From assembly GCA_964404065.1 (NCBI GenBank), contig CAYOIP010000001.1, positions 21,721 through 85,720 on the forward strand: DNA of 64,000 nt. Direction: 5' to 3'. Shown piece after piece: positions 514 to 48,695 of this stretch; position 1 is the first letter of the stretch, and the number at the start of each line of letters is the position of its first letter. This DNA comes from an uncultured Candidatus Peribacteria bacterium (GTDB lineage Bacteria > Patescibacteriota > Gracilibacteria > BD1-5 > UBA6164). The translations under genes and the position numbers were made by a program. Under the pieces are notes generated by a model. The model did not search any database. It saw nothing but the letters and a program-made list of their open reading frames with translations, and had not been told where the DNA came from.

Positions 514-3162
514 TTATTTTTTCAAAACTAATTTATCATTTTCAATACTCAAAAGTACATCATCTCATGATTTTAATTCATCTTTTAATATAAAGTTTGA
601 AAGTTCATTTAAAACTATGTTTGTAATAGCTCTTTTCATAGGACGTGCTCAAAATTCACTATCAAATCAAACTTTTATTAAGTATTCTTTTAATTCTTTT
701 GAAAAATCTATTTTTATATTTTTAGCTTCTAATATTTTACAAACGTCTTTTAGTAATATTTCAACTATTTCTAAAATCATTTCGTGATTTATAGGATTGA
801 AAACTATTATATCATCTATTCTATTTAAAAATTCTGGTCTGAAATAATTCTTTAACTCTCATAACATTTCTTTATTTATTTCATCTTCTGATTTTTTTTC
901 TTCTATGAGAGAAGCAATTTTTTTACTTCAAATATTAGATGTTAAAATAATTATAGCATTTTTAAAATTAACAGTTCTTCATTTACTATCAGTTAATCTA
1001 CCATCATCAAGAACTTGTAAAAGTACATTAAATACATCAGGGTGAGCTTTTTCAACTTCATCAAAGAGAATTACGCTATATGGTTTTCTTCTAACAGCCT
1101 CAGTTAATTGTCCTCATTCTTCATATCAAACATATCCAGGAGGTGCTCCTATAAGTCTTTGAACAGAGAATTTTTCCATATATTCGCTCATATCAATTCT
1201 GATAAAAGCATCTTTAGAATCAAATAAATTTAGAGCTAGTGCTTTTGCAGTTTCAGTTTTACCAACTCAAGTAGGACCAAGAAATAAAAAGCTTCAAAGA
1301 GGTTTGTGTTCATCATTTAGTCAAGCTTTTGCTCTTTTAATAGCATTTGCAACTGCAAAAATGGCTTTATCTTGTCATACAACCGATTTTTTCAAATACT
1401 CTTCTAAATGCAATATTTTATCTTTTTCGCTTTGAACAAGTTTTGAAACAGGAATAGATGTCCATTTTGAAATTATTTCTGCAATATCCTCATCAGTTAC
1501 TTTATCTCTTAAATAAGATTTTCCTGAGTTTTTTATTTCTTCAAGTTTATTATCAATTTCAGAAATTTCTTTTTCTAGAGCAGGGATTTCAGAATAACTT
1601 ATTTTAGCTACTTCTTGGTAATTTGCTTCTCTTTCAAAAGTTTTTGCTTTTATTTTTAATTCTTCAATTTTTTCTCTTAACTGCTTTGATGCAACAATTA
1701 AATCTTTTTCTTTTTTCCAAGATATTTCTAAAGATTTATATTCTTCTTTTTTGGAAGCTATTTCGTGAGATAGTTTTTCTAATCCCCCCTCTAACTCCCC
1801 CCTAGCAGGGGGAGGAGGATTTTGGATTTTCCCCTCCTGCAAGGGAGGGGTTAGGGGAGGGGTATTTTCTGACTTCTTCGCCTCCAACTCTATCTCCAAA
1901 TTCCTTATTTTTTTCTCTAAAATATCAAGTTCAACAGGTTTTGAAATAGTTTTTAATTTTACTGAAGATAATGCTTCGTCAATCAGATCAATGGCTTTAT
2001 CAGGAAGTTTTCTATCAGTAATATATTTTATACTTAATTCAACTGCTGAAATTATAGCATTATCAGTTATTTTTATTCAGTGATGAGTTTCGTATTTATC
2101 TTTTATTCATCTAAGTATAGCTAGCGCATCTTCTCTTGAAGGTTCATCAACTAATACTTGTGCAAATCTTCTTTCTAAAGCTGGATCTTTTTCAATATAT
2201 TTTCTATATTCATTTATAGTTGTAGCTCAAATCAAATGCAAAGCTCATCTAGCTAAACTTGGTTTCAAAAGATTTCAAGCATCGGCTTGTCATTCCTGAT
2301 TTCAAGCTCAAACTATAGTATGAATTTCATCAATAAAAAGTATTATATTTCAGTTAGATTTTTCAACTTCTTTGATAACTGCTTTTAGTCTTTCTTCAAA
2401 TTCTCATCTATACTTTGCTCATGCAAGCAAAGCTCACATATCAAGAGTTATAATTCTTTTTCAAAGTAAATTTTCTGGAACTTCACGCTCAACTATTTTT
2501 CTAGCAATTCACTCAATAATTGCTGTTTTTCAAACTCAAGGGTCTCAAACTAAAACTGGATTATTTTTTGTCCTACGAGATAGTATTTGAATAGTACGTC
2601 TAATTTCTTCTTCTCTTCAGATTACTGGATCTATTTTTCCATTTCTTGCTTGCTCCACCAAATCTATTCAATATTTTTTCAGAGCATTTAGTTTATTTTC
2701 TGCGTCATTTGAAGTTACTTTTTCTCAATTTCTAAACTTTTCAATAACTTTTAAAATATCATCATATTTTATATTTAGAGTAGAGAATATGTTTTTTATT
2801 TTTTCGCTTCAAGATTTTAAAATTGCTAAAATAAGATGTTCTTCTGTTATAAATTCGTCTTTGTTTTTTCAAGCAATATTTTCAGCTTCTCTTAAAATGT
2901 CATTTAGAGGGTAAGAAATCCTCAAATCATAATGTCATTCAATTTTTGGGAAATTATCAATTTCTTTTTTAATACTTGATTTTAAAATCATTAAATCGGC
3001 TCCTAAATCAAGAAGTATTTCTTTTACAATGCTATCACTAGATTCAAGCATAGAGTAAAGTAAATGAAAATCAGTGATTTCAGGATTTTTTAAATTATTT
3101 GCAAGATTTTGGGCTTCTGCAATCCTAGAACTTGCATTTATGGTAAATTTTTCGATGTTCAT
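514..3162 (-). CDS. clpB: ClpB disaggregase (AAA+ chaperone), 882 aa, with a repeat-derived insert in the middle domain
   Basis: N-terminus [18 protein letters not shown].... NBD1 Walker A VGDPGVGKTA at ~2521-2550 has three Gly encoded by TGA. NBD2 FLGPTGVGKTE. C-terminus [15 protein letters not shown] then TAA. Standard-code fragments 1375-1899 and 2935-3162 are in the same frame. Confidence 0.95.
1784..1862. repeat. GC-rich palindromic element, double-arm copy A, inside the clpB CDS in frame
   Basis: cccccctctaactcccccctagcagggggagg-aggattttggatttt-cccctcctgcaagggaggggttaggggagggg. Two inverted units, each with its own hairpin. Read in frame as [32 protein letters not shown] (visible in ORF-track entry 1375..1899). 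Confidence 0.9.
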
Positions 3163-7069: not shown

Positions 7070-8494
7070 TTACAATTTATACTCAATTTTTTCTCAAATT
7101 CAAATATTTCCAGAAATTACATTTGATGATTTTATATAATCAAGTTCATCTATTTCTGGAGCATGGCTTTCTGGTATAACGGAAAGTTTATTTTTTGAGA
7201 TTTCGTGAATATATCAAGTTTGAATTTTTCAAACTCTTTGCTCATATTTTTTATCATAAATTTCTTCTAGGATTTCTCTCATTTCATAAACTCTTTGCTC
7301 AATAATTTTGTCATCAACTTTATTACCAAGTTTTGAAGAAGTTGCTAAAGGTTCATCATGATAACCAAAAAGAGAAACACTATCAAATTCATATTTTCTT
7401 GCAAAATTTTTTAGCATTTCAAAATCTTTTTCATCTTCCCCGGGGAACCCAACTATAAAGTTTGTATGAAGAAAAACATTTTTAAAATTTGCTTTTATGA
7501 AATCTAAAACTTTATAAATATGACTTTCATCGTAAAATCTTCACATAAGTTTTAAAACTTTTGGAGAAATATGTTGAAATGGAAGATCAAAATATGGAAT
7601 CATTTTTTTCAGTTTTGCAAGTCTTTCTAGATGAGAAAAAGTCAAGATATCGGGATACATATAGTAAATTCTATATTTAAAATCTCATGGAACTTTATCA
7701 ATTTCTTCAAGTAAATCTACAAGTTTAGATTCTCAGTAGATATCTGTTCAATATCTTGTTAAATCTTGAGCAATAATTTGAATTTCTTTAATTCCAGAAG
7801 AAATCATCGTTTTCACTTCAGTGAGTATATCTTCGATACTTCTTGATTTTTGTCTTCATCTGATGTTTGGAATTATACAAAAAGTACAATTATTATCACA
7901 TCATTCAGATATTTTTAGATATTCATATCCAAAATCAGCATTTAGGTAAGCTCTTACATCATCAGATTGCCAAATAAATGCTTTTGATGAAATATTGTCA
8001 CCTCAGATATTTTTTAAATAGTTTTTTAATTTTTCTGTTTTTAAGCTTATAATATTTTGATTTAGCTTTCTAAATCCCCCAACCTCCGCTACGCTTTGGT
8101 TTTCCCCCTTTACAAAAGGGGGAAGCGAAGTATGAGCAGGGGGATTTTTCATCCAATCAAGATTTTTACTTTCATTATGAGGAATAACAGCATAAAGATT
8201 TTTAAGGCTTGATAAAAATTCGTCATCTTTTACTTCTGTATAACATCACATAACAATAATTTTCTTTCATTTATCGTCATATTCTTTTATAAGATTTTCA
8301 GCTTCTTTTCTAGAACTAGATAAAAATCAGCAAGTATTTATTATCAAATACTCAACTTCTTTTTCGTCTGGATCAGTAAAAAACTCTATATCAACTTCTG
8401 AAGATAAATTAAAAATATTTCAAACCATAAATTCTAAATCAACTAAATTTTTAGAACATCCAAGGTTTATAGTGGAAAAATAAAATGTTTTCAT
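7070..8494 (-). CDS. rimO: ribosomal protein S12 methylthiotransferase RimO (radical SAM) with a repeat-derived insert
   Basis: MKTFYFSTINLGCSKNLVDLEFM; NTCGF; radical-SAM ISEGCDNNCTFCIIP; C-terminal TRAM-like end. Fragment 7229-7417 is in the same frame. 474 aa. Confidence 0.85.
8072..8147. repeat. GC-rich nested palindrome (divergent variant, copy B) inside the rimO CDS in frame
   Basis: aaatccccc...cgctt..ttttcccccttt-ac-aaaagggggaa-gcg...gggggattt. Outer 9-bp and inner 10-bp inverted repeats. Translated as NPPAHTSLPPFVKGENQSVAEVGGF. Confidence 0.8.
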
Positions 8495-13817: not shown

Positions 13818-13841
13818 AATTTCAAGTTATCATTTAAATTT

Positions 13842-13879
13842 CCCCTCTACCTCAAGGGAGAGGGGTTAGGGGTGAGGGC
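13842..13879. repeat. GC-rich palindromic element, single-unit copy C
   Basis: cccctctacctcaagggagaggggttaggggtgagggc. Its terminal ...GGGCTATAT supplies the TAG stop of the upstream gene. Flanked by TTAAATT on both sides. Confidence 0.85.
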
Positions 13880-14615: not shown

Positions 14616-14686
14616 CCCCCCACCTAGCATCCCCCTGGCAGGGGAGGAATTTTCCCCTCTTGCTAGGGAGGGGTTAGGGGAGGGGC
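14616..14686. repeat. GC-rich palindromic element, double-arm copy D
   Basis: ccccccacctagcatccccctggcaggggagg-aatttt-cccctcttgctagggaggggttaggggaggggc. It supplies the TAG stop of the PrgI-like gene. Confidence 0.9.
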
Positions 14687-24584: not shown

Positions 24585-24664
24585 CCCCCCACCTAGCCTC
24601 CCTCGCAAGCTGGGGAAGAACTAAAAAACCCCTCCCGGCTTGCGAGAGGGGGTAGGGGAGGGGC
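24585..24664. repeat. GC-rich palindromic element, double-arm copy E, in the nrdA-nrdB spacer
   Basis: ccccccacctagcctccctcgcaagctggggaag-aactaaaaaa-cccctcccggcttgcgagagggggtaggggaggggc. Confidence 0.9.
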
Positions 24665-28867: not shown

Positions 28868-28946
28868 TGGAGCGAGGGACCAGGTTTGAACTGGCACACC
28901 CAAGGGTTGAAGCCTTAGTACACTCACTCTTTTATGTTACCCTCGC
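28868..28946 (-). tRNA. tRNA-Gly with anticodon UCA (reads UGA), CCA encoded
   Basis: GCGAGGG-TA-ACAT-AAAAGAGTGA-GTGT-A-CTAAGG-CT[TCA]AC-CCTTGG-GTGT-GCCAG-TTCAAAC-CTGGT-CCCTCGC-T-CCA. Cloverleaf with a 7-bp acceptor, a short variable loop, and the Gly identity set G1:C72, C2:G71, G3:C70, U73. Confidence 0.85.
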
Positions 28947-35085: not shown

Positions 35086-35694
35086 ATGCCAGAAAGTTTA
35101 AAAAAATTGATTAATCTTATAGGTTTTTTACCTTGAGTTGGAGAAAAGTCAGCTACTAAACTTGCATTTTTTTTACTGAATTCAAATAAAAATTATCTAG
35201 AAAATCTTGCAAATTTACTAAATAATTTAAAATCAAGTATAGGAAAGTGTGAAAATTGTGGAAGTTTGGTTGATATGTGAAAAGAACTTTGTGAAATCTG
35301 CACTGATGAAAGTAGAGATAAAAATATAATTTGTGTAGTTGAAGAATATCTTGATAAAATGACAATTGAAAATTCTTGAATTTTTAATTGAACTTATCAT
35401 ATACTTGGATGAGCTATTTCACCGATAAATGGAGTTTTTATTTGAGATTTAAATTTTGAAAAATTATTTAAAAAAATTGCAGAACACGAGTGAGGTTTAG
35501 AGCTAATTATGGCTACAAACCCAAATATTGAATGAGAAGCAACGGTTCAATATATTTTATGAGAATTAGAAAAAAGATGACTTAAAAAATTTGTAAAAAT
35601 TACAAGACTTTCTAGATGACTTTCTAGTTGATATATAGAATATGCTGATAATATTACACTTATAAATTCTATAAAAGAAAGAAAAGAAATTTAA
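35086..35694 (+). CDS. recR: recombination protein RecR
   Basis: LPGVGEKSATKLAFFLL (HhH), zinc finger CENCGSLVDMGKELCEIC, Toprim ICVVEEYLDKMTIE. 202 aa. Confidence 0.9.
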
Positions 35695-35728
35695 CCCCCA
35701 CCTAACCTCCCCCTTATCAAGGGGAGGG
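35695..35728. repeat. GC-rich palindromic element, single-unit copy F, starting 1 nt after the recR stop
   Basis: cccccacctaacctcccccttatcaaggggaggg; hairpin CCTCCCC-ttatcaa-GGGGAGG. Confidence 0.85.
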
Positions 35729-39420: not shown

Positions 39421-41232
39421 TTATTTTTCTAATACTGCTTTTATTCTTCTAACTCATCTAGAACTGGCTTCTTCTTTTAAAATCTTAAATTTTCACATAA
39501 TTCCAGTATTTTCTACATGTGGTCATCCACAAAGTTCTCTTGAAAATATTTCTCAAGAAGGAGATTTAAATGTATAAACTTTTACGATATCAGGATATTT
39601 TTCCCAAAAACTTCATTCTACTCAGTTTTCTTTTGCAACATTTTTATCCATTTCTTCTAAAACAACTTCAGCTTGTGCTGAAATAGCTTGGTTTACATAA
39701 TCTTCTACTTCTTTCAATTGTTCAGGTGTAACTTTATCTTCATTTGTGAAATCAAATCTAAGTCTTTCAGCAGTTATATTTGATCCAGCTTGATGAACAT
39801 GATTTCATAGGACTTTTCTAAGTCATGCCAACATTAAGTGAGTAGCTGAGTGAAGAGCTGTTGTAGTTTCTGAGTGATCAGCTAATCCTCAAGCAAATTT
39901 TTGAGCAGCTCAAGCGCGTGATAATTCTTGATGTTTTTTAAAAGCTTCATTGAATCAATCAACATCAACTTTTAGTCATTTTTCTAAAGCTAACTCCTGA
40001 GTCATCTCAATTGGGAAACCAAAAGTTTGAAATAAATCAAAAGCTTCTTTTCAAGAAATTTCTGATTTATTCCCCTCTCCTTGCAGGAGAGGGGCTAGGG
40101 GTGAGGTTTTTTTATCAAACTCTCTCAATCATTTTTCTAATGTAGTTAAAAATTGTTTTTCTTCTCTATCAATCTCTTCTAAAATTATAGACTTTCTATC
40201 AAGTACATTTGTATAAATTGGTGAAAATTTTTCTATTACTTTGCTTGCAACTGGAGATAAAAATTGTCACTGAAATCCTAGTTTATATCATTGTCTGATA
40301 GCACGTCTTAAAAGTCTTCTTAAAATATATCATTGATCTACATTTGATGGAGTTACAGAGTCAGAAATCATTATAACAGAAGTTCTTAAGTGGTCTGCTA
40401 TTATTCTTACAGAATTTTTTGTATTTTCGTTATATTCAATATTTAAAGTTTTACATATAACTTCAATAATATCTGAAAAAATATCAGTTTCATAAACACT
40501 TGGAGCTCAAGTTAAAGTTCTTGTAATTCTTTCAAGTCACATTCATGTATCTACGTTTTGCATTGCTGCTTTATTAAAATTTTCATTTTCATCTTTAACA
40601 TATTCCATAAATACATTATTCCAGATTTCCATCCAGTTTTTATCATCATTTCAAACTGTGCTTTCTTTTGGTGGAAGTTCTTCTTTTCATACCCGATAAA
40701 ATATTTCAGTATCTGGTCAGCAAGGTCCTGTTGCTCCAGCTGGTCCCCACCAATTATCTTTTTTTCAAAGATAACTTATATTTGTAATTCCTAAACTTCT
40801 CCAAACATCAGCAGAAAAATCATCTTTTGGAGCATTCAAGTCTCACTCAAAAACTGTTACAGCTATTTTTTTAGGGTCAATTGCTAGCCAATCTTTTGAA
40901 GTTAAAAATTCATAAGACCATTTTATAGAATCTTCCTTGAAATAATCTCAAAGCGACCAATTTCCAAGCATTTCAAAAAATGTTAAGTGAGTATTATCTC
41001 AAACATCTTCTATATCTCAAGTTCTTATACATTTTTGATAATCAGCTAACCTTTTTCCAAGAGGGTGTTTTTCTCATAACAAATATGGAACCAAAGGTTG
41101 CATTCCGGCAGTATTAAATAAAACAGTTGGATCATTTTCAGGAACTACTGAAGCAGAAGGGATGATAGAATGATTTTTTGATAAGAAAAAATCAATATAT
41201 TTTTGTCTAATTTCATGACTTGTAATTTGCAT
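39421..41232 (-). CDS. alaS: alanine--tRNA ligase, short form (603 aa) with a repeat-derived insert
   Basis: The N-terminal two thirds was translated line by line. [27 protein letters not shown] (Trp=TGG and Gly=TGA in one motif), GPCGPDTEIFY, editing-domain HSATHLM and CGGPHV. Confidence 0.95.
40072..40106. repeat. GC-rich palindromic element, single-unit copy G, inside the alaS CDS in frame
   Basis: cccctctccttgcaggagaggggctaggggtgagg (24 of 35 nt are G/C by count). Translated as [12 protein letters not shown]. Confidence 0.9.
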
Positions 41233-43938: not shown

Positions 43939-45999
43939 ATGTCAGAACAAGAAAAAAAAGAGCAAACTTTAACTCAAGAAACTCAAATTAGGCAAGAATA
44001 TACTGAAGATGATTTAAGAGTTCTTCTTGTTGATTTATGAATGCTAGAAGAAAATTTATTTTCAAATAAAGATTGAATAGTTGATGGAAATAGTGGTGAT
44101 AGTGAAATAGATAAAAAATATAAAGAATGATTAAAGAAAGCAAAAGATATTAAAACAAAAATAGAATTAGTTCAAAGACTTTATTGAGAATTTAGTAGAG
44201 ATAGTTATATAAAAACAACTATTTCATCTCATTTAGATTCAAAAAAAGATTATTTAGATGATGAAGATAGGGATAATATATATAAAATTCAAGAAGAAAC
44301 ACAAAAGATATTAAATGATTATCCAGAATATAAAGAAGTTATAGTTAATCATATAGAATCTAATTTTGATAAATTAAATTATATTGTTTCTAATTACCAA
44401 AAAAATTGAATTGATAAAAAAATCATATCTAATTATTTAAAGATAGATTATAAATTAACTTTAAATGAATGATTTAATAGATTGAGAATAATATTAGAAC
44501 ACATAAATAAGTCAGAAAAAATCATTGATAAAAAAAACATTGTAGATAATTTTCTAAATATAACAAAAAGTGTTTCAGTTGATTTTAGTTGAATGTCTGA
44601 AATAGAAAAAAATAATGACCCATATTGACTTAAAAAATTAGATAAAATATATAATTTTGATTTTACAAATAAGTCACAAGAATTAGATATATATAATTTA
44701 TTAAAAATTTGAATTAAAGATTTAGAATATATAAACAAACTTTACAAAGAAAATAATAAACAAGAATTAATAAGTTTTATAGATAATTTAGAAAATAAAA
44801 ATGATTTGTTAAAAATTGAAAGTATCAAAAAAATTTATTTAGAAGAAAGAAAAAATGAATATGATATAAAAGATTTAGATTTTTGAAGATTAGATGATGT
44901 TTTATTAAAAATAGAAAAAATAAAAGATTTAAAAACAAAAGAAAAAATTATTAATTTACTTAAGGAGTTCAAAAATGGGGGAATTAATGTAGGAAATAAA
45001 GAACAAAAAGAAAAAGAATTAAATGAAATATTTTCTTCTGCATTAAAAGACATTTCTAAAAATATAAATGATGATGATAAAATAAATGACAATCATTATG
45101 AATTAAGTATTCTACACTCTATTGCAATAACTTTTTCAACAGATTTTACTCTTGAGCAAATAGAAAAATTACAAGAAAATATTTGAAAAAATGTAAATAT
45201 AAGATTATTAAAACTAGAAGAAAAATTAAGTAATCCAAATGATTTATATAGGTATAAAAAATGATTGGCATCTTTAAGAGAAAATGACAATTCACCAGAA
45301 AACACTCAGTTAAAATTAGATTATTATAATAGTTTTTCTTTATGAAAAAATACTTATTCTCAAGGTATAAGATGAAAAGCTGAAGAAGAAAAAAAACAAC
45401 CAAAAATTACTGAATCAAAAAAAGCACAAATTCAATATCATTACCAAAAACTTTGATTAAAAGTTCAAGTTTGAAATAATTGAGAAATATTATGAAAATA
45501 TTGAGAGAAAAGTTTTTCTCAAAAACTTCAAGGTTGAAAAATAGAAGTTTGAGCCGATGAGAAAATGATTTACACAACATCACTTTGATACAAATTTGAA
45601 TTTGAGAATAGTGAATTTTGAGCTATGAAAGTAGTTGAAATAACTCAAAGATTTGATTATTTAAACAAAATCTGACTTGGATATTTTGGTGAAAATTTCA
45701 AGAAAATGATGGATTGTATTCCAAGTTTTCTTCCTAATCAAGCATTAAGATTAAATATAGACGAAAAGACTTGAGATTTTTTAGATCAAGTTGAATTAGG
45801 TAAAATTTTAGAAATATTTATAAATATTTGATTTCTTGAAAATATAAATTTTAGTCAAAATATATCAAATATTCAGGAGGTTACTGATGGACAGATGATG
45901 TATAGAGTTTGAAATCTAGAAAATTGAAGTGCATTTATTGATTGAAAATTTGATATAAAATTATTTTGAGAATTATTACAAGAAAAAAATAAAGTCTAA
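43939..45999 (+). CDS. hypothetical K/E/N-rich protein (686 aa)
   Basis: Every codon was checked and is open under code 25. Starts 9 nt after the upstream stop. Confidence 0.6.
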
Positions 46000-46018
46000 A
46001 ATTTAGACTTTATTTGTT
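45988..46018. terminator. hairpin at convergent gene ends
   Basis: aaagtctaaa-a-tttagacttt. It overlaps both stop codons (45997-45999 on + and 45996-45998 on -). Confidence 0.5.
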
Positions 46019-46940
46019 TAAGTAATTTAAATAATTTATATAAAAATTTATTATTTATCCAAATATAACTATCACTTACTTTTTTTATATCTGGAGTAAA
46101 TTTTAGTTTAAAATCAGTTACTCAAGCAAGTGGTGAATTTTTATCTTCAGGGCTTGCTATTCATAAAAAATCATAATACTTAGATCAAATTTCTTTGGCT
46201 TTCTTTATAGCGTACCATTGCATACTATACGGAGCCATTAAGTTTCTAAATTCTTTTAGAGAAGTAGAAGCTCAATAATAATAAATAGAAATTTCTTTAT
46301 TAAAAATAAATATTCAAGCAGAAAGTATTTTGTCTCAAATTTTTGTAAAAATAAGAGAACTTTCAGGGATAATTTCTAAAAAATTTTTATAATATTCTAA
46401 ACTATTTCAAGAAAATCAGTCTCTTGAAGTTGTTTCTAAAATTAGCGAGTAAAATATTTTTATATTTTCTAGAGTTTTTTCTACTTCAAAAACTTCAACT
46501 CATTTTTTAGTTGCAAGTCAGATATTATATCTTCACTTTGGTTTCATTTCTGATAAAATTTCTTCTTCAGATTTTTTTAAATCAATAAGAGCTGTATAGG
46601 GAGTAATGAATTTTTTATAGTGTCAAGGTTTTAGCCCCCCCTCTAACTCCCCCCTAGCAGGGGGAGAAATAGGACTTTCCTCCCCTGCCAGGGGGAGGTT
46701 AGGTGGGGGGATTTTAAAACTCTCAACTTGCACAAATAAACAACTTTGCAATTTACAAAGTTTAATTAATTCCTCAAAATTAACTTTTTCTAAATCTTCT
46801 ATTCATAAAGCAAAAAGTCAGTATTTTCAAAATCAAATACTTCTTTTTTCTACTAATATTTCATCAACCTCAAAAACATCACTTGCTTGATGTGATTTTA
46901 ATAGTAATTTTTTCCAATTATTTGATTGCCAAATAGACAT
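45996..46940 (-). CDS. FemAB-family peptidoglycan bridge-forming aminoacyl transferase (FemX/MurM-like) with a repeat-derived insert
   Basis: 314 aa. MSIWQSNNWKKLL, MKPKGRYNIGLATKKGVEV, GVTDFKLKFTP. Insert [30 protein letters not shown]. Confidence 0.7.
46635..46710. repeat. GC-rich palindromic element, double-arm copy H, inside the FemAB-like CDS in frame
   Basis: ccccccctctaactcccccctagcagggggag-aaataggactttcc-tcccctgccagggggaggttaggtgggggg. The left arm shares 31 identical nt with copy A. Confidence 0.9.
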
Positions 46941-46944
46941 AGTT

Positions 46945-47955
46945 TTAGTTTTTATGTAAATGTTTAATTGCATTCTCTGTGATTTTTCTTCCACGAGATG
47001 ATTTTTCTATAAATCAGATTTGAAGTAAATATGGTTCAACCACATCTTCAAGAGTTGCTTCTTCTTCTCAAATACTTGATGCGAGTGTTCCAAGTCCTAC
47101 AGGACCTCACGAAAATTTTAAATTTATTGTATCAAGATATTTTTTATCTAAATAATCAAGTCCAATCTCATCAATTCATAAATCTATAAAAATTTCTTTC
47201 CAAGTTTTTTGCTCATTTATATTGTGCCCTATAATTTTATAATCTCTAATAATTTTTAAAAGTCTATTTGAAATACGAGGAGTTCATCTACTTCTAGATG
47301 AAATTGCTTCAATTAAATCTTTTTGCATTTCTAGTTCTAGTATTGATGCATTTCTTACAAGAATTTTTGATAAATCACTTCCTGAATAAAAATCAAGTTT
47401 TAGAACATTTCCAAACCTATCTCTTAGAGGGCTAGATAATGCACTGAGTTTTGTAGTAGCTCATATTAAAGTAAAAGATTGAACTGGCATTCTAACACTT
47501 TGCGCTCAAGTTCATTTTCAAACAACAATATCTATAACAAAATCTTCCATTGCAGTATAAAGTATTTCTTCAATTTGTGGTTTTAAACGGTGAATTTCAT
47601 CTATAAAAAGTATGTCTCAGGCTTCAATATTTGATAATATACTAACAAGATCTGCTTGTTTTTCTATAGCAGGACCAGATGTGATCTTTAAATTGCTTCA
47701 CATCTCGCTTGCTATGATGTTTGATAAAGTAGTTTTTCATAGTCCCGGAGGTCAGTAAAAAAGAATATGCTCTAAAGCTGCATTTCTGAGTTTTGCTGAA
47801 GCGATTGAAACTCAAAGATGTTTTTTTATTTGTTCTTGTCCAACATATTCTCAAAGTGTTTTTGGTCTAAGAGAATTTTCATTTAGATCAATATCTTTTA
47901 CAGTAGTTTCAATAACTCTATCGGGTTTTTTAGTTTTTGATGAACTTAATGCCAT
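46945..47955 (-). CDS. ruvB: Holliday junction helicase RuvB
   Basis: [49 protein letters not shown]. 336 aa. Confidence 0.95.
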
Positions 47956-47979: not shown

Positions 47980-48070
47980 CCCTCACCCCAACCCTCTCCT
48001 TTGAAGGAGAGGGAGTAGAAGGATTTTTTATCCCCCTCTACCCTCAAGGGAGAGGGGCTAGGGGTGAGGG
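47980..48070. repeat. GC-rich palindromic element, double-arm copy I
   Basis: ccctcaccccaaccctctcctttgaaggagaggg-agtagaaggattttttat-ccccctctaccctcaagggagaggggctaggggtgaggg. The right arm lies inside the 3' end of the methyltransferase CDS. Confidence 0.9.
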
Positions 48071-48616
48071 TTTTACTATCATAACTATTCCATCTTCAAT
48101 ATCAATAGGAATAATATTGTATGCAATTTTATTATCTTCTAAATACTCCCAAAATCAAATCATTTTTTCTCTAAATTTTATTACGTCATCTATAATTACA
48201 ATACCTCAAGGTAATACTTTATCCCAAACTAATTCTAAAAAATCTTTAGTTCTTCTTTTCATTCCATCAATAAATACAAAATCAAAAGTTTCATTTAAAG
48301 CTGGAATTATATCTAAAGCATTTCAATTTATAGCATTTATTGCATTTTCTACTCAAGCAGTTTTGAAATTTTCCAGCGCTTCTATATAAGATAATTTTGA
48401 AAACTCTATTGTTGTTAGTTTTCCTCAAATTTCTTTTAACTCTAAAGCAAAATTTATTGCACTATATCAATTTGCAGTTCATATTTCAAGCATATTTTTA
48501 GTTTTTGAGACTTTAATTAAATCTCTTAAAAATCTAGCATTTACTTCTGAAATATTTGGAATTTCGTTTTGTAATCAGTGTTTTTTTAGTTCTTTTAGAA
48601 ATACATCAACATTCAT
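48038..48616 (-). CDS. class I SAM-dependent O-methyltransferase (family-3-like) with a repeat-encoded C-terminal tail
   Basis: LEIGTANGYSAINFA, FDFVFIDGMK, GGIVIIDDV. Ends ...IVMIVKPSPLAPLPGG-TAG, with the last ~10 codons and the stop inside repeat copy I. Confidence 0.7.
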
Positions 48617-48695
48617 TTTTTTGGCTTTAATATTTAATATAATAAAATATAAAAATAAAAAATTATAAGTCAAGAATTAAATTTTCTAGAAAAAC

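Follow-up and report, generated by a model that had tools for sequence, protein, structure and literature searches.

The stretch analysed here, called the window throughout, consists of 64,000 nt of contig CAYOIP010000001.1 (positions 21,721–85,720, forward strand) of assembly GCA_964404065.1, which derives from an uncultured Candidatus Peribacteria bacterium (GTDB lineage Bacteria; Patescibacteriota; Gracilibacteria; BD1-5; UBA6164). The window has a G+C content of about 25%, and its open reading frames (ORFs) were read with genetic code 25, in which TGA specifies glycine. At 39421–41232 on the minus strand lies alaS, encoding a 603-aa alanyl-tRNA synthetase (AlaRS) with 29 in-frame TGA codons, which fall at glycine positions; under table 11 no ORF of 100 aa or more is found around the alaS site described below. 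Pfam assigned tRNA-synt_2c to residues 7–449 (E=1.2e-133) and also recognised tRNA_SAD (E=5e-13), and AlaRS fragments in the PDB matched the protein at E=1e-88. The protein has the make-up of a class IIc AlaRS, with a catalytic, a tRNA-recognition and an editing domain, but lacks C-Ala, the domain that in canonical AlaRS targets the tRNA elbow. The roughly 200 Gracilibacteria orthologs, each of about 604 aa, also end directly after the editing domain and have no C-Ala. In the tRNA-recognition domain of the window enzyme a native segment has been replaced by a patch that contains a translated copy of a dispersed GC-rich repeat, and units of this kind occupy the same site in several other lineages.

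The translated unit lies at 40072–40107 on the minus strand and supplies 12 codons, T376–G387. Its 35-mer, CCCCTCTCCTTGCAGGAGAGGGGCTAGGGGTGAGG, sits at 40072–40106, precisely where the initial annotation, made from the sequence alone, had put it, and the number of matches expected in dinucleotide-preserving shuffles is zero. The same annotation had taken the middle 12 codons to be a repeat unit read in frame and the flanks to be conserved AlaRS sequence; the first agrees with our residues 376–387, and the second was borne out by the ortholog alignment. A 21-nt core of the unit, made up of the tail and an arm, recurs at 48049–48069 without a mismatch and at 13857–13877 with one, where none is expected. 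On the plus strand, 40072–40094 forms a hairpin of a C-rich arm, CCCCTCTCC(T), a loop and a G-rich arm, (A)GGAGAGGGG; this element, CCCCTCTCC-TTGCA-GGAGAGGGG, folds into a stem of 10 bp, as RNA and equally as DNA (-11 kcal/mol, z=-3.5). Folded in an 81-nt context, the mRNA has a 10-bp G+C hairpin (-25.9 kcal/mol, z=-3.7), which might slow ribosomes. A second loop, CTA, and a G-rich tail, GGGGTGAGG, follow at 40095–40106 on the plus strand, and the tail mirrors the G-rich arm with A changed to T at one position. From this arrangement the tail is a potential third strand of a purine-motif intrastrand triplex.

We compared the window AlaRS with its 120 best matches and with a second set that brought the total to about 200 orthologs; orthologs are labelled Candidatus Gracilibacteria by their sources. 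The 120 best orthologs are 598–636 aa long, nearly all of them 603–606 aa, and in 190 of the roughly 200 the loop between EF[DE]K and AF.LY.T has 23 residues. At the site the aligned orthologs have the native consensus K-L-[VIL]-x-G-F-x-I-A-F-E-R-T-G-x-K-x-D-T-I-S-G-D-K-A-F, and the 18 codons that face the window patch encode L-[VI]-x-GFQIAFE[RK]TGQK[VI]DT; the GFxIAF segment is missing from only eight of the roughly 200 proteins. The nearest relatives, L084 (88% aa identity with W and G equalised) and L001, both have the native segment, and their contigs (about 14 kb each) contain no GC-rich unit. In pairwise DNA alignments, identity of about 90% extends upstream to GAT-AAA and downstream from ATT-TCT-TGA, with sharp boundaries, and between them 54 native bases face 51 unrelated ones, 36 of which are the unit and 15 flanking sequence. 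The native 18-codon segment is thus replaced by a unit-bearing patch of 17 codons (K375–E391, 40060–40110 on the minus strand). The initial annotation had described a single unit inserted into AlaRS; the repeat copy is real and is absent from repeat-free relatives, which conserve a different sequence at the site, but the net insertion is not, because those relatives carry a native segment of equal length, 54 bases of which gave way to 51.

Code-25 genomes give poor tblastn scores, and a contig scan with the AlaRS query recovered a single close relative (L001). A protein search limited to residues 366–412 for unit-bearing AlaRS passed only the window's own protein, and a metagenome pattern scan for the unit tail followed by ISG.E in alaS yielded nine loci, none of them in alaS and all matching by chance.

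Because assembly can go wrong at GC-rich repeats, we considered an assembly chimera at the repeat or a chance GC-rich coding stretch. In run X1, probably the source sample, five further contigs match only 40069–40107 (0–4 differences) and then continue into unrelated sequence, as a chimera might lead one to expect; these contigs point to more copies of the same subfamily in the window genome or in co-occurring genomes. The independently assembled Logan contig of X1 (3159 nt) spans 39700–40500 and is identical over all 801 bases, and 151-nt contigs from run X2, a groundwater sample of a second study, cross both unit junctions (39952–40102 with no difference, 40077–40227 with four). The RNA runs X3 and X5 covered only 40286–40500, short of the unit. 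Since the ORF stays open, both flanks are alaS, and 21 of 21 core nucleotides agree with other copies in a 25%-GC genome where none would be expected by chance, an artefact is hardly credible.

Units occupy this exact site in five of the roughly 200 orthologs: the window protein (P0001), P0031 (locus L081, GCA_036170435.1), P0040 (L082, GCA_030950465.1), P0149 (L097, GCA_027075905.1) and, in decayed form, P0032 (L083). The five agree in orientation, with the C-rich tail leading in the mRNA, and in frame (ACC-TCA-CCC...); each lacks the five codons QKxDT and has glutamate as residue 396. Bearers resemble proteins with the native tip far more than they resemble each other: identity is 94% for P0031 and P0024, 91% for P0040 and P0116 and 87% for P0149 and P0159, against only 70–78% between bearers. 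The bearers are scattered over an IQ-TREE tree that was computed without the loop columns and with W and G treated as one residue. Approximately unbiased (AU) tests rejected joint clades of P0001 with P0031 (p=3e-28), P0001 with P0040 (p=1e-49) and P0031 with P0040 (p=3e-143), leaving only P0001 with P0032 unrejected (p=0.45), and five changes are required to account for the five bearers on a FastTree tree of 196 sequences. This scatter and the AU tests together imply at least four separate placements of the bearers. A single ancient insertion, inherited vertically and followed by repeated regain of the native segment, would explain why all bearers have the site, the frame, the QKxDT loss and E396 in common, and the unrejected clade of the window protein with P0032 is compatible with it. 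The other joint clades, however, are all rejected at p<1e-27, bearers stand closer to natives than to one another, and regaining an 18-codon native helix would require recombination anyway; we regard such a history as very improbable.

The units at the alaS site belong to different subfamilies, which argues for separate acquisitions. Those of the window and L081 have the form CCCC-TAG-CCCCTCTCC, those of L082 and L097 the form CCCC-AA-CCCTCTCC, and that of L083 is of the GGGAG type; point changes without frameshifts cannot convert one subfamily into another. The L082 and L097 units are nearly identical to a unit that stands between genes in the window at 47980–48013. The alaS genes of these two loci are 79% identical overall, yet 59 of 63 nt agree across the patch, and 63-nt windows overlapping it are the most similar in the gene (95%). 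Downstream of the unit, both have an alanine codon, GCT, at a position occupied by glutamate in their respective relatives; alanine occurs there in only 4 of 193 natives, and GAA to GCT takes two changes. As judged from these alignments, the L082/L097 patch suggests a short-patch exchange between alaS alleles. A long recombination tract around the unit was considered and rejected, as sliding windows showed no clear tract in the window, L081 or L082.

Inside alaS the hairpin decays in relatives of the window enzyme. A synonymous change in L081, GGA to GGC, breaks a stem pair, and L083 keeps a stem of only 5 bp. The L081 protein is 10 residues longer and has a decayed native turn on both sides of its unit (RTQTISEK ... 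unit ... DRTEISGVE; L081:9480–9620), the upstream copy, RTQTISEK, aligning to native RTGQIVDTISGDK with three in-frame gaps. The extra turn could stem from target duplication or from unequal exchange.

The E. coli AlaRS 1–441 fragment aligns to window residues 5–439, the unit site included. In the AlphaFold model of the window protein (mean predicted local distance difference test score, pLDDT, 85), a long helix at 347–379 is followed by residues 381–390 with a pLDDT of 54 and by a second helix at 394–404; the interdomain linker lies at 442–451 (pLDDT below 50), and the editing domain begins at about residue 455. In the model of the native L084 protein the first helix, 347–386, continues through the segment with a pLDDT of 84–89 and is joined by a short turn to the same second helix. 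According to these models, the unit swaps the last two to three helix turns and the turn itself, the tip of a helical hairpin, for a low-confidence Pro/Gly coil. The initial annotation had placed the unit between this tRNA-recognition region and the editing domain, but the site is within the former, some 55 residues ahead of the linker; the accompanying expectation of a surface loop agrees with the exposed, low-confidence loop of the AlphaFold model. The tip varies in length among bacteria: alignment to PDB AlaRS fragments places other bacteria 8 residues shorter at this site, and the roughly 200 orthologs include non-repeat variants that are shorter (P0049), different (P0065) or 17 residues longer (P0118). 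The P0118 tip has 40 residues where natives have 23, and its sequence, AFLKPKYFMSCNYEDETFRKKLDDNNFEISKRWC, is not a repeat.

The residues that follow the patch have changed together with it. Codon 396 (40045–40047, minus strand) encodes glutamate in the window and lysine in 109 of 120 orthologs, and the position is E, Q or D in all seven loop-altered proteins of that set. Glutamate itself is found there only in the four unit bearers and P0065, and P0149 of the second set has it too. In every bearer–neighbour pair nonsynonymous differences cluster in the 10 codons after the patch, whereas a native–native pair shows no cluster; synonymous differences in these codons equal the gene average. We read the K396 change as reflecting structural coupling to the tip, the lysine probably having given way to glutamate because its helical partner was lost.

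The patch lies one helix upstream of a residue that takes part in tRNA identity. In E. coli, recognition of the G3:U70 identity pair involves Asp400, which binds the 2-amino group of G3, and the D400A and D400N enzymes are almost inactive (PMC6055181). The equivalent codon in the window, 15 residues after the unit, is Q402 (40027–40029, minus strand), and at 40027–40032 on the minus strand, where F401-Q402 correspond to E. coli Tyr399-Asp400, the AlaRS motif L-Y-D-T-[YF]-G-F-P reads L-F-Q-T-F-G-F-P. Among the 120 orthologs the Asp400 position is D in 113, Q in four (the window, P0032, P0038 and P0065) and E in three (P0025, P0026 and P0034), and the tip is altered in three of the four with Q. 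The other reader of G3:U70 in E. coli, Asn303, is kept in the window as N297, an invariant residue. No tRNA-Ala gene was found in the 64-kb window or in nine related loci. These observations might be explained if the Pro/Gly coil had been selected for an altered approach of the recognition domain to the tRNA-Ala acceptor stem, with the repeat as raw material. For such adaptive remodelling one can cite that the patch directly precedes the helix with the G3 reader, that Tyr399 and Asp400 have become Phe and Gln in a form found in only 4 of 120 orthologs, three with an altered loop, and that the nonsynonymous changes directly after the patch recur in all bearers. Yet P0031, P0040 and P0149 carry the unit and keep Y-D, P0038 has F-Q with a native loop, the unit peptides differ between lineages and decay with no conserved peptide, and the coil is predicted with low confidence. 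Selection of this kind is accordingly quite unlikely in our view.

The alaS unit belongs to a family that we delimited by scanning the window for G+C islands and for hairpins of a C-rich and a G-rich arm. The scan found 13 units in 64 kb, five loci holding inverted pairs and three holding single units. Each unit combines a hairpin, in which a C-rich arm of 7–10 nt and its G-rich complement flank a loop of 3–9 nt, with a second loop of 3 nt (TTA, CTA, TTG or GTA) and a second G-rich arm, and the position of an A in the G-rich arm tells at least three subfamilies apart. When compared by eye across three subfamilies, the tail of 10 of the 13 units has A or T at the position that mirrors the A of the arm, which is the signature of a purine-motif intrastrand triplex; one mismatched position occurs at 24629–24663. 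Searched against Rfam at its gathering threshold, the window matched no family. Units are translated in alaS, clpB, a FemAB-family gene and the tail of a methyltransferase gene, as is a divergent palindrome in a methylthiotransferase gene; translated loci number at least five in the 64 kb.

In build, these units are closest to the TM_ECO (BoxC/PIT) motif of E. coli and other bacteria (Holder et al. 2015, PMC4666352). In TM_ECO, too, a C-rich arm of about 9 nt and its G-rich complement enclose a loop of 3–7 nt; a second loop of 3 nt (TTA or CTA) leads to another G-rich arm, the mirror image of the first with A facing A or T, so that G*G:C, A*A:T and T*A:T triplets are possible; it too is 34–37 nt long and dispersed in many copies, often as inverted pairs. 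One extra G per run is all that separates the G-arm and tail of the window unit at 13841–13879, GGGAGAGGGGTTAGGGGTGAGGG, from TM_ECO type A, GGGAGAGGGTTAGGGTGAGGG. The strict consensus as published, CCCTCNCCC N3-6 GGGNGAGGG N3 GGGNGAGGG, has no match in the window, where the runs (4C-T-C-T-2C) stand in another register, shifted by one base relative to E. coli. TM_ECO is described as 'always located intergenically' in E. coli MG1655, whereas the window units are translated in at least five loci and their host is a 25%-GC, code-25 bacterium of the candidate phyla radiation (CPR). The motif has also been tied to local rearrangement and deletion (PMC4666352), which fits an insertion with loss of neighbouring codons. 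Going by its build, the window repeat belongs with BoxC/PIT/TM_ECO, while failing their strict consensus and their intergenic habit.

Other known elements agree with the window units in part. Rickettsia palindromic elements (RPEs), as summarised in PMC10969869, are palindromic repeats that occur dispersed and in frame within housekeeping genes of unrelated kinds, where they are translated at fold-compatible sites, and the window units also sit in frame in unrelated protein genes at such sites. According to the same summary, RPEs measure about 100–150 bp, form the families RPE-1 to -10 of Rickettsia, encode a conserved peptide and amount to a net insertion, and they are unrelated to our unit in sequence. 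The unit, by contrast, has 36 nt, occurs in a different phylum, encodes a peptide that varies with frame and subfamily, replaces in alaS a native segment of equal length, and occupies one orthologous site in several lineages. REP/REPIN elements, mobilised by RAYT (PMC3733652), are like the window units short GC-rich palindromes, often present as inverted pairs between genes; unlike them, the window unit has no GTAG or CGTC head, and its hallmark is the mirror-image third arm. Among the 10 small window ORFs scanned there was no RAYT, other transposase or nuclease. Reading the flanks of the window units by eye, with no formal scan, we saw no short target-site duplication such as marks miniature inverted-repeat transposable elements; unlike these elements, the L081 unit has decayed native-turn sequence of about 24 nt on either side. 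Like the indel hot spots of aminoacyl-tRNA synthetases, the alaS site is a variable tip, but in five cases the new sequence is a genomic repeat copy and not the product of slippage or drift. In the literature we found no paper linking triplex-type repeats to coding insertions in CPR bacteria.

Taken together, these results lead us to favour, with a probability of roughly two in three, a reading in which a passenger copy of the repeat replaced the native tip of AlaRS, was tolerated, and spread by acquisition and patch exchange. Under this reading, a copy of the dispersed GC-rich hairpin and mirror-tail repeat would have joined the alaS reading frame, where the unit and 15 flanking bases supplanted the 18-codon native helix end and turn of the tRNA-recognition domain. 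Translated as a floppy Pro/Gly-rich coil, it would be tolerated because the tip is peripheral and length-variable among bacteria, and K396 would have changed to E once its helical partner was gone. From then on the unit would evolve as coding sequence, its hairpin decaying in relatives. Two routes could lead to the scatter among lineages: repeated acquisition, for which the presence of at least two unit subfamilies speaks, and homologous exchange in short patches, by which alaS alleles would pass on the tip with the unit. The unit is most likely a passenger and not a new functional module: it probably does nothing useful for the enzyme, because the peptide differs between lineages, the hairpin decays and the coil is of low confidence. 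By analogy, the alaS element most likely works like a Rickettsia palindromic element.

Several observations weigh against this account. RTQTISEK in L081 resembles a target duplication rather than a simple replacement. No other unit lies on the contigs of L081 (13.5 kb), L082 or L097, and import or targeting fits this better than local random hits. Sliding-window analysis of synonymous and nucleotide divergence in the window, L081 and L082 revealed no imported tract of synonymous differences flanking the unit, so that any exchange tract would be at most about 25 codons long. Furthermore, site, orientation, frame (one of the four to six open) and QKxDT loss are more regular than random insertion followed by selection predicts; if all open frames were equally acceptable, the odds of the same orientation and frame in all lineages would be about 1/64 or less, so that targeting, or selection acting on the peptide, may have had a part.

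This regularity is what an active, site-directed insertion would produce, with machinery that recognises the alaS spot by sequence or DNA structure and makes independent hits at the same position, in the same orientation and frame. Five bearers in at least four gene-tree positions with one site, one orientation and one frame are in keeping with such a mechanism, as are the unit subfamilies at that site, at least two or three, which speak for separate events, and the fact that the only unit on the 13.5-kb L081 contig lies in alaS. Only one other unit-like insert was seen among the roughly 200 AlaRS orthologs, PFPSEERGI after residue 268 of P0080, which is the only other candidate repeat site. 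On the other hand, the flanks of the window units, as read without a formal scan, show neither a conserved target motif nor a target-site duplication, native DNA from the alaS site bears no resemblance to the unit, none of the 10 small window ORFs is a transposase or nuclease, and a permissive tip together with selection also yields recurrence at one site. Site-directed insertion is unlikely on this balance, and tolerated replacement of the tip by a passenger copy remains the reading we prefer.

A bolder possibility can be raised, tentatively: the unit-bearing alaS tip may be a small mobile allele segment that passes between distantly related Gracilibacteria, by short-patch homologous recombination or by a site-directed mechanism. 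If so, the repeat would use alaS as a vehicle and landing pad into new genomes, in a homing-like manner and without an endonuclease of its own, and the near-identical 63-nt patch of L082 and L097 would be one such transfer.

To our knowledge, short palindromic repeats translated inside essential genes are a textbook matter only for Rickettsia. The same behaviour is now seen in a recoded CPR bacterium for a motif of the BoxC/triplex kind, a very widespread class described as strictly intergenic. A repeat can thus replace a folded native element rather than add a loop, a neighbouring residue changes together with it, and one orthologous site is occupied repeatedly across lineages, with a hint of allele-patch exchange. 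The importance of the case, moderate in our judgement, rests on the replacement of a folded element, the recurrence at one orthologous site and the closeness to the G3:U70 reader. That closeness, at a helix where the otherwise universal Asp is Gln, poses a concrete biochemical question. It can now be tested whether such repeats are targeted or merely filtered by selection, and what share of core-enzyme loop diversity they supply in small-genome bacteria.

Among the further units of the window, a sister of the alaS unit lies at the end of an O-methyltransferase gene (48031–48070, plus strand). The ORF, at 48038–48673 on the minus strand (Pfam Methyltransf_3), ends ...KPSPLAPLPGG, the unit supplying the last 10 codons, PSPLAPLPGG, and the TAG stop, in agreement with the earlier statement that the same unit in the same frame gives the SPLAPL peptide there. 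The TAG stop falls at a mismatch in the C-rich arm of this unit's hairpin (coding strand GGGTAGAGGGG). Nearby, the intergenic unit at 47980–48013 (minus strand) is of a second subfamily, CCCTCACCCCAACCCTCTCC..., the one to which the alaS units of L082 and L097 are so similar. A longer mobile unit, marked by AGTAGAAGG behind this copy and by GCTAGAACA behind the alaS units of L082 and L097, was considered and rejected, since the other window units have unrelated sequence in that place.

An inverted pair at 1783–1863 is translated as 27 residues inside clpB (514–3162, minus strand, 882 aa), where it lies between the first AAA module, whose AAA_lid_9 ends at residue 434, and the second, with AAA_2 from residue 620; the frame of its first unit is the same as in alaS. 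Another inverted pair, at 46634–46711, is translated as 27 residues inside a FemAB-family gene (45996–46994, minus strand), and its first unit takes the other open frame; this genome thus uses both. Inside a radical-SAM/UPF0004 methylthiotransferase gene (7070–8494, minus strand), the stretch 8076–8136 holds a divergent C/G-rich palindrome, TTCCCCCT-TTACAAA-AGGGGGAA, whose translation falls after the N-terminal domain and before the radical-SAM core. The remaining units comprise intergenic inverted pairs at 14616–14686 and 24585–24663, the single unit at a gene 3' end at 13841–13879 (plus strand), whose G-arm and tail were compared with TM_ECO above, and a single unit at 35694–35727 (minus strand) directly behind the stop of the gene at 35086–35694.

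Two observations concern other parts of the loci. In one strain whose alaS has the native tip (P0004 group), an integrase gene of the rve family is situated at L085:935–1414, some 1.2 kb upstream of alaS; it is absent from this place in the sister contig L084. At 28868–28946 on the minus strand of the window, ARAGORN calls a tRNA-SeC with anticodon TCA; in this code-25 genome it is a UGA-reading tRNA-Gly(UCA).

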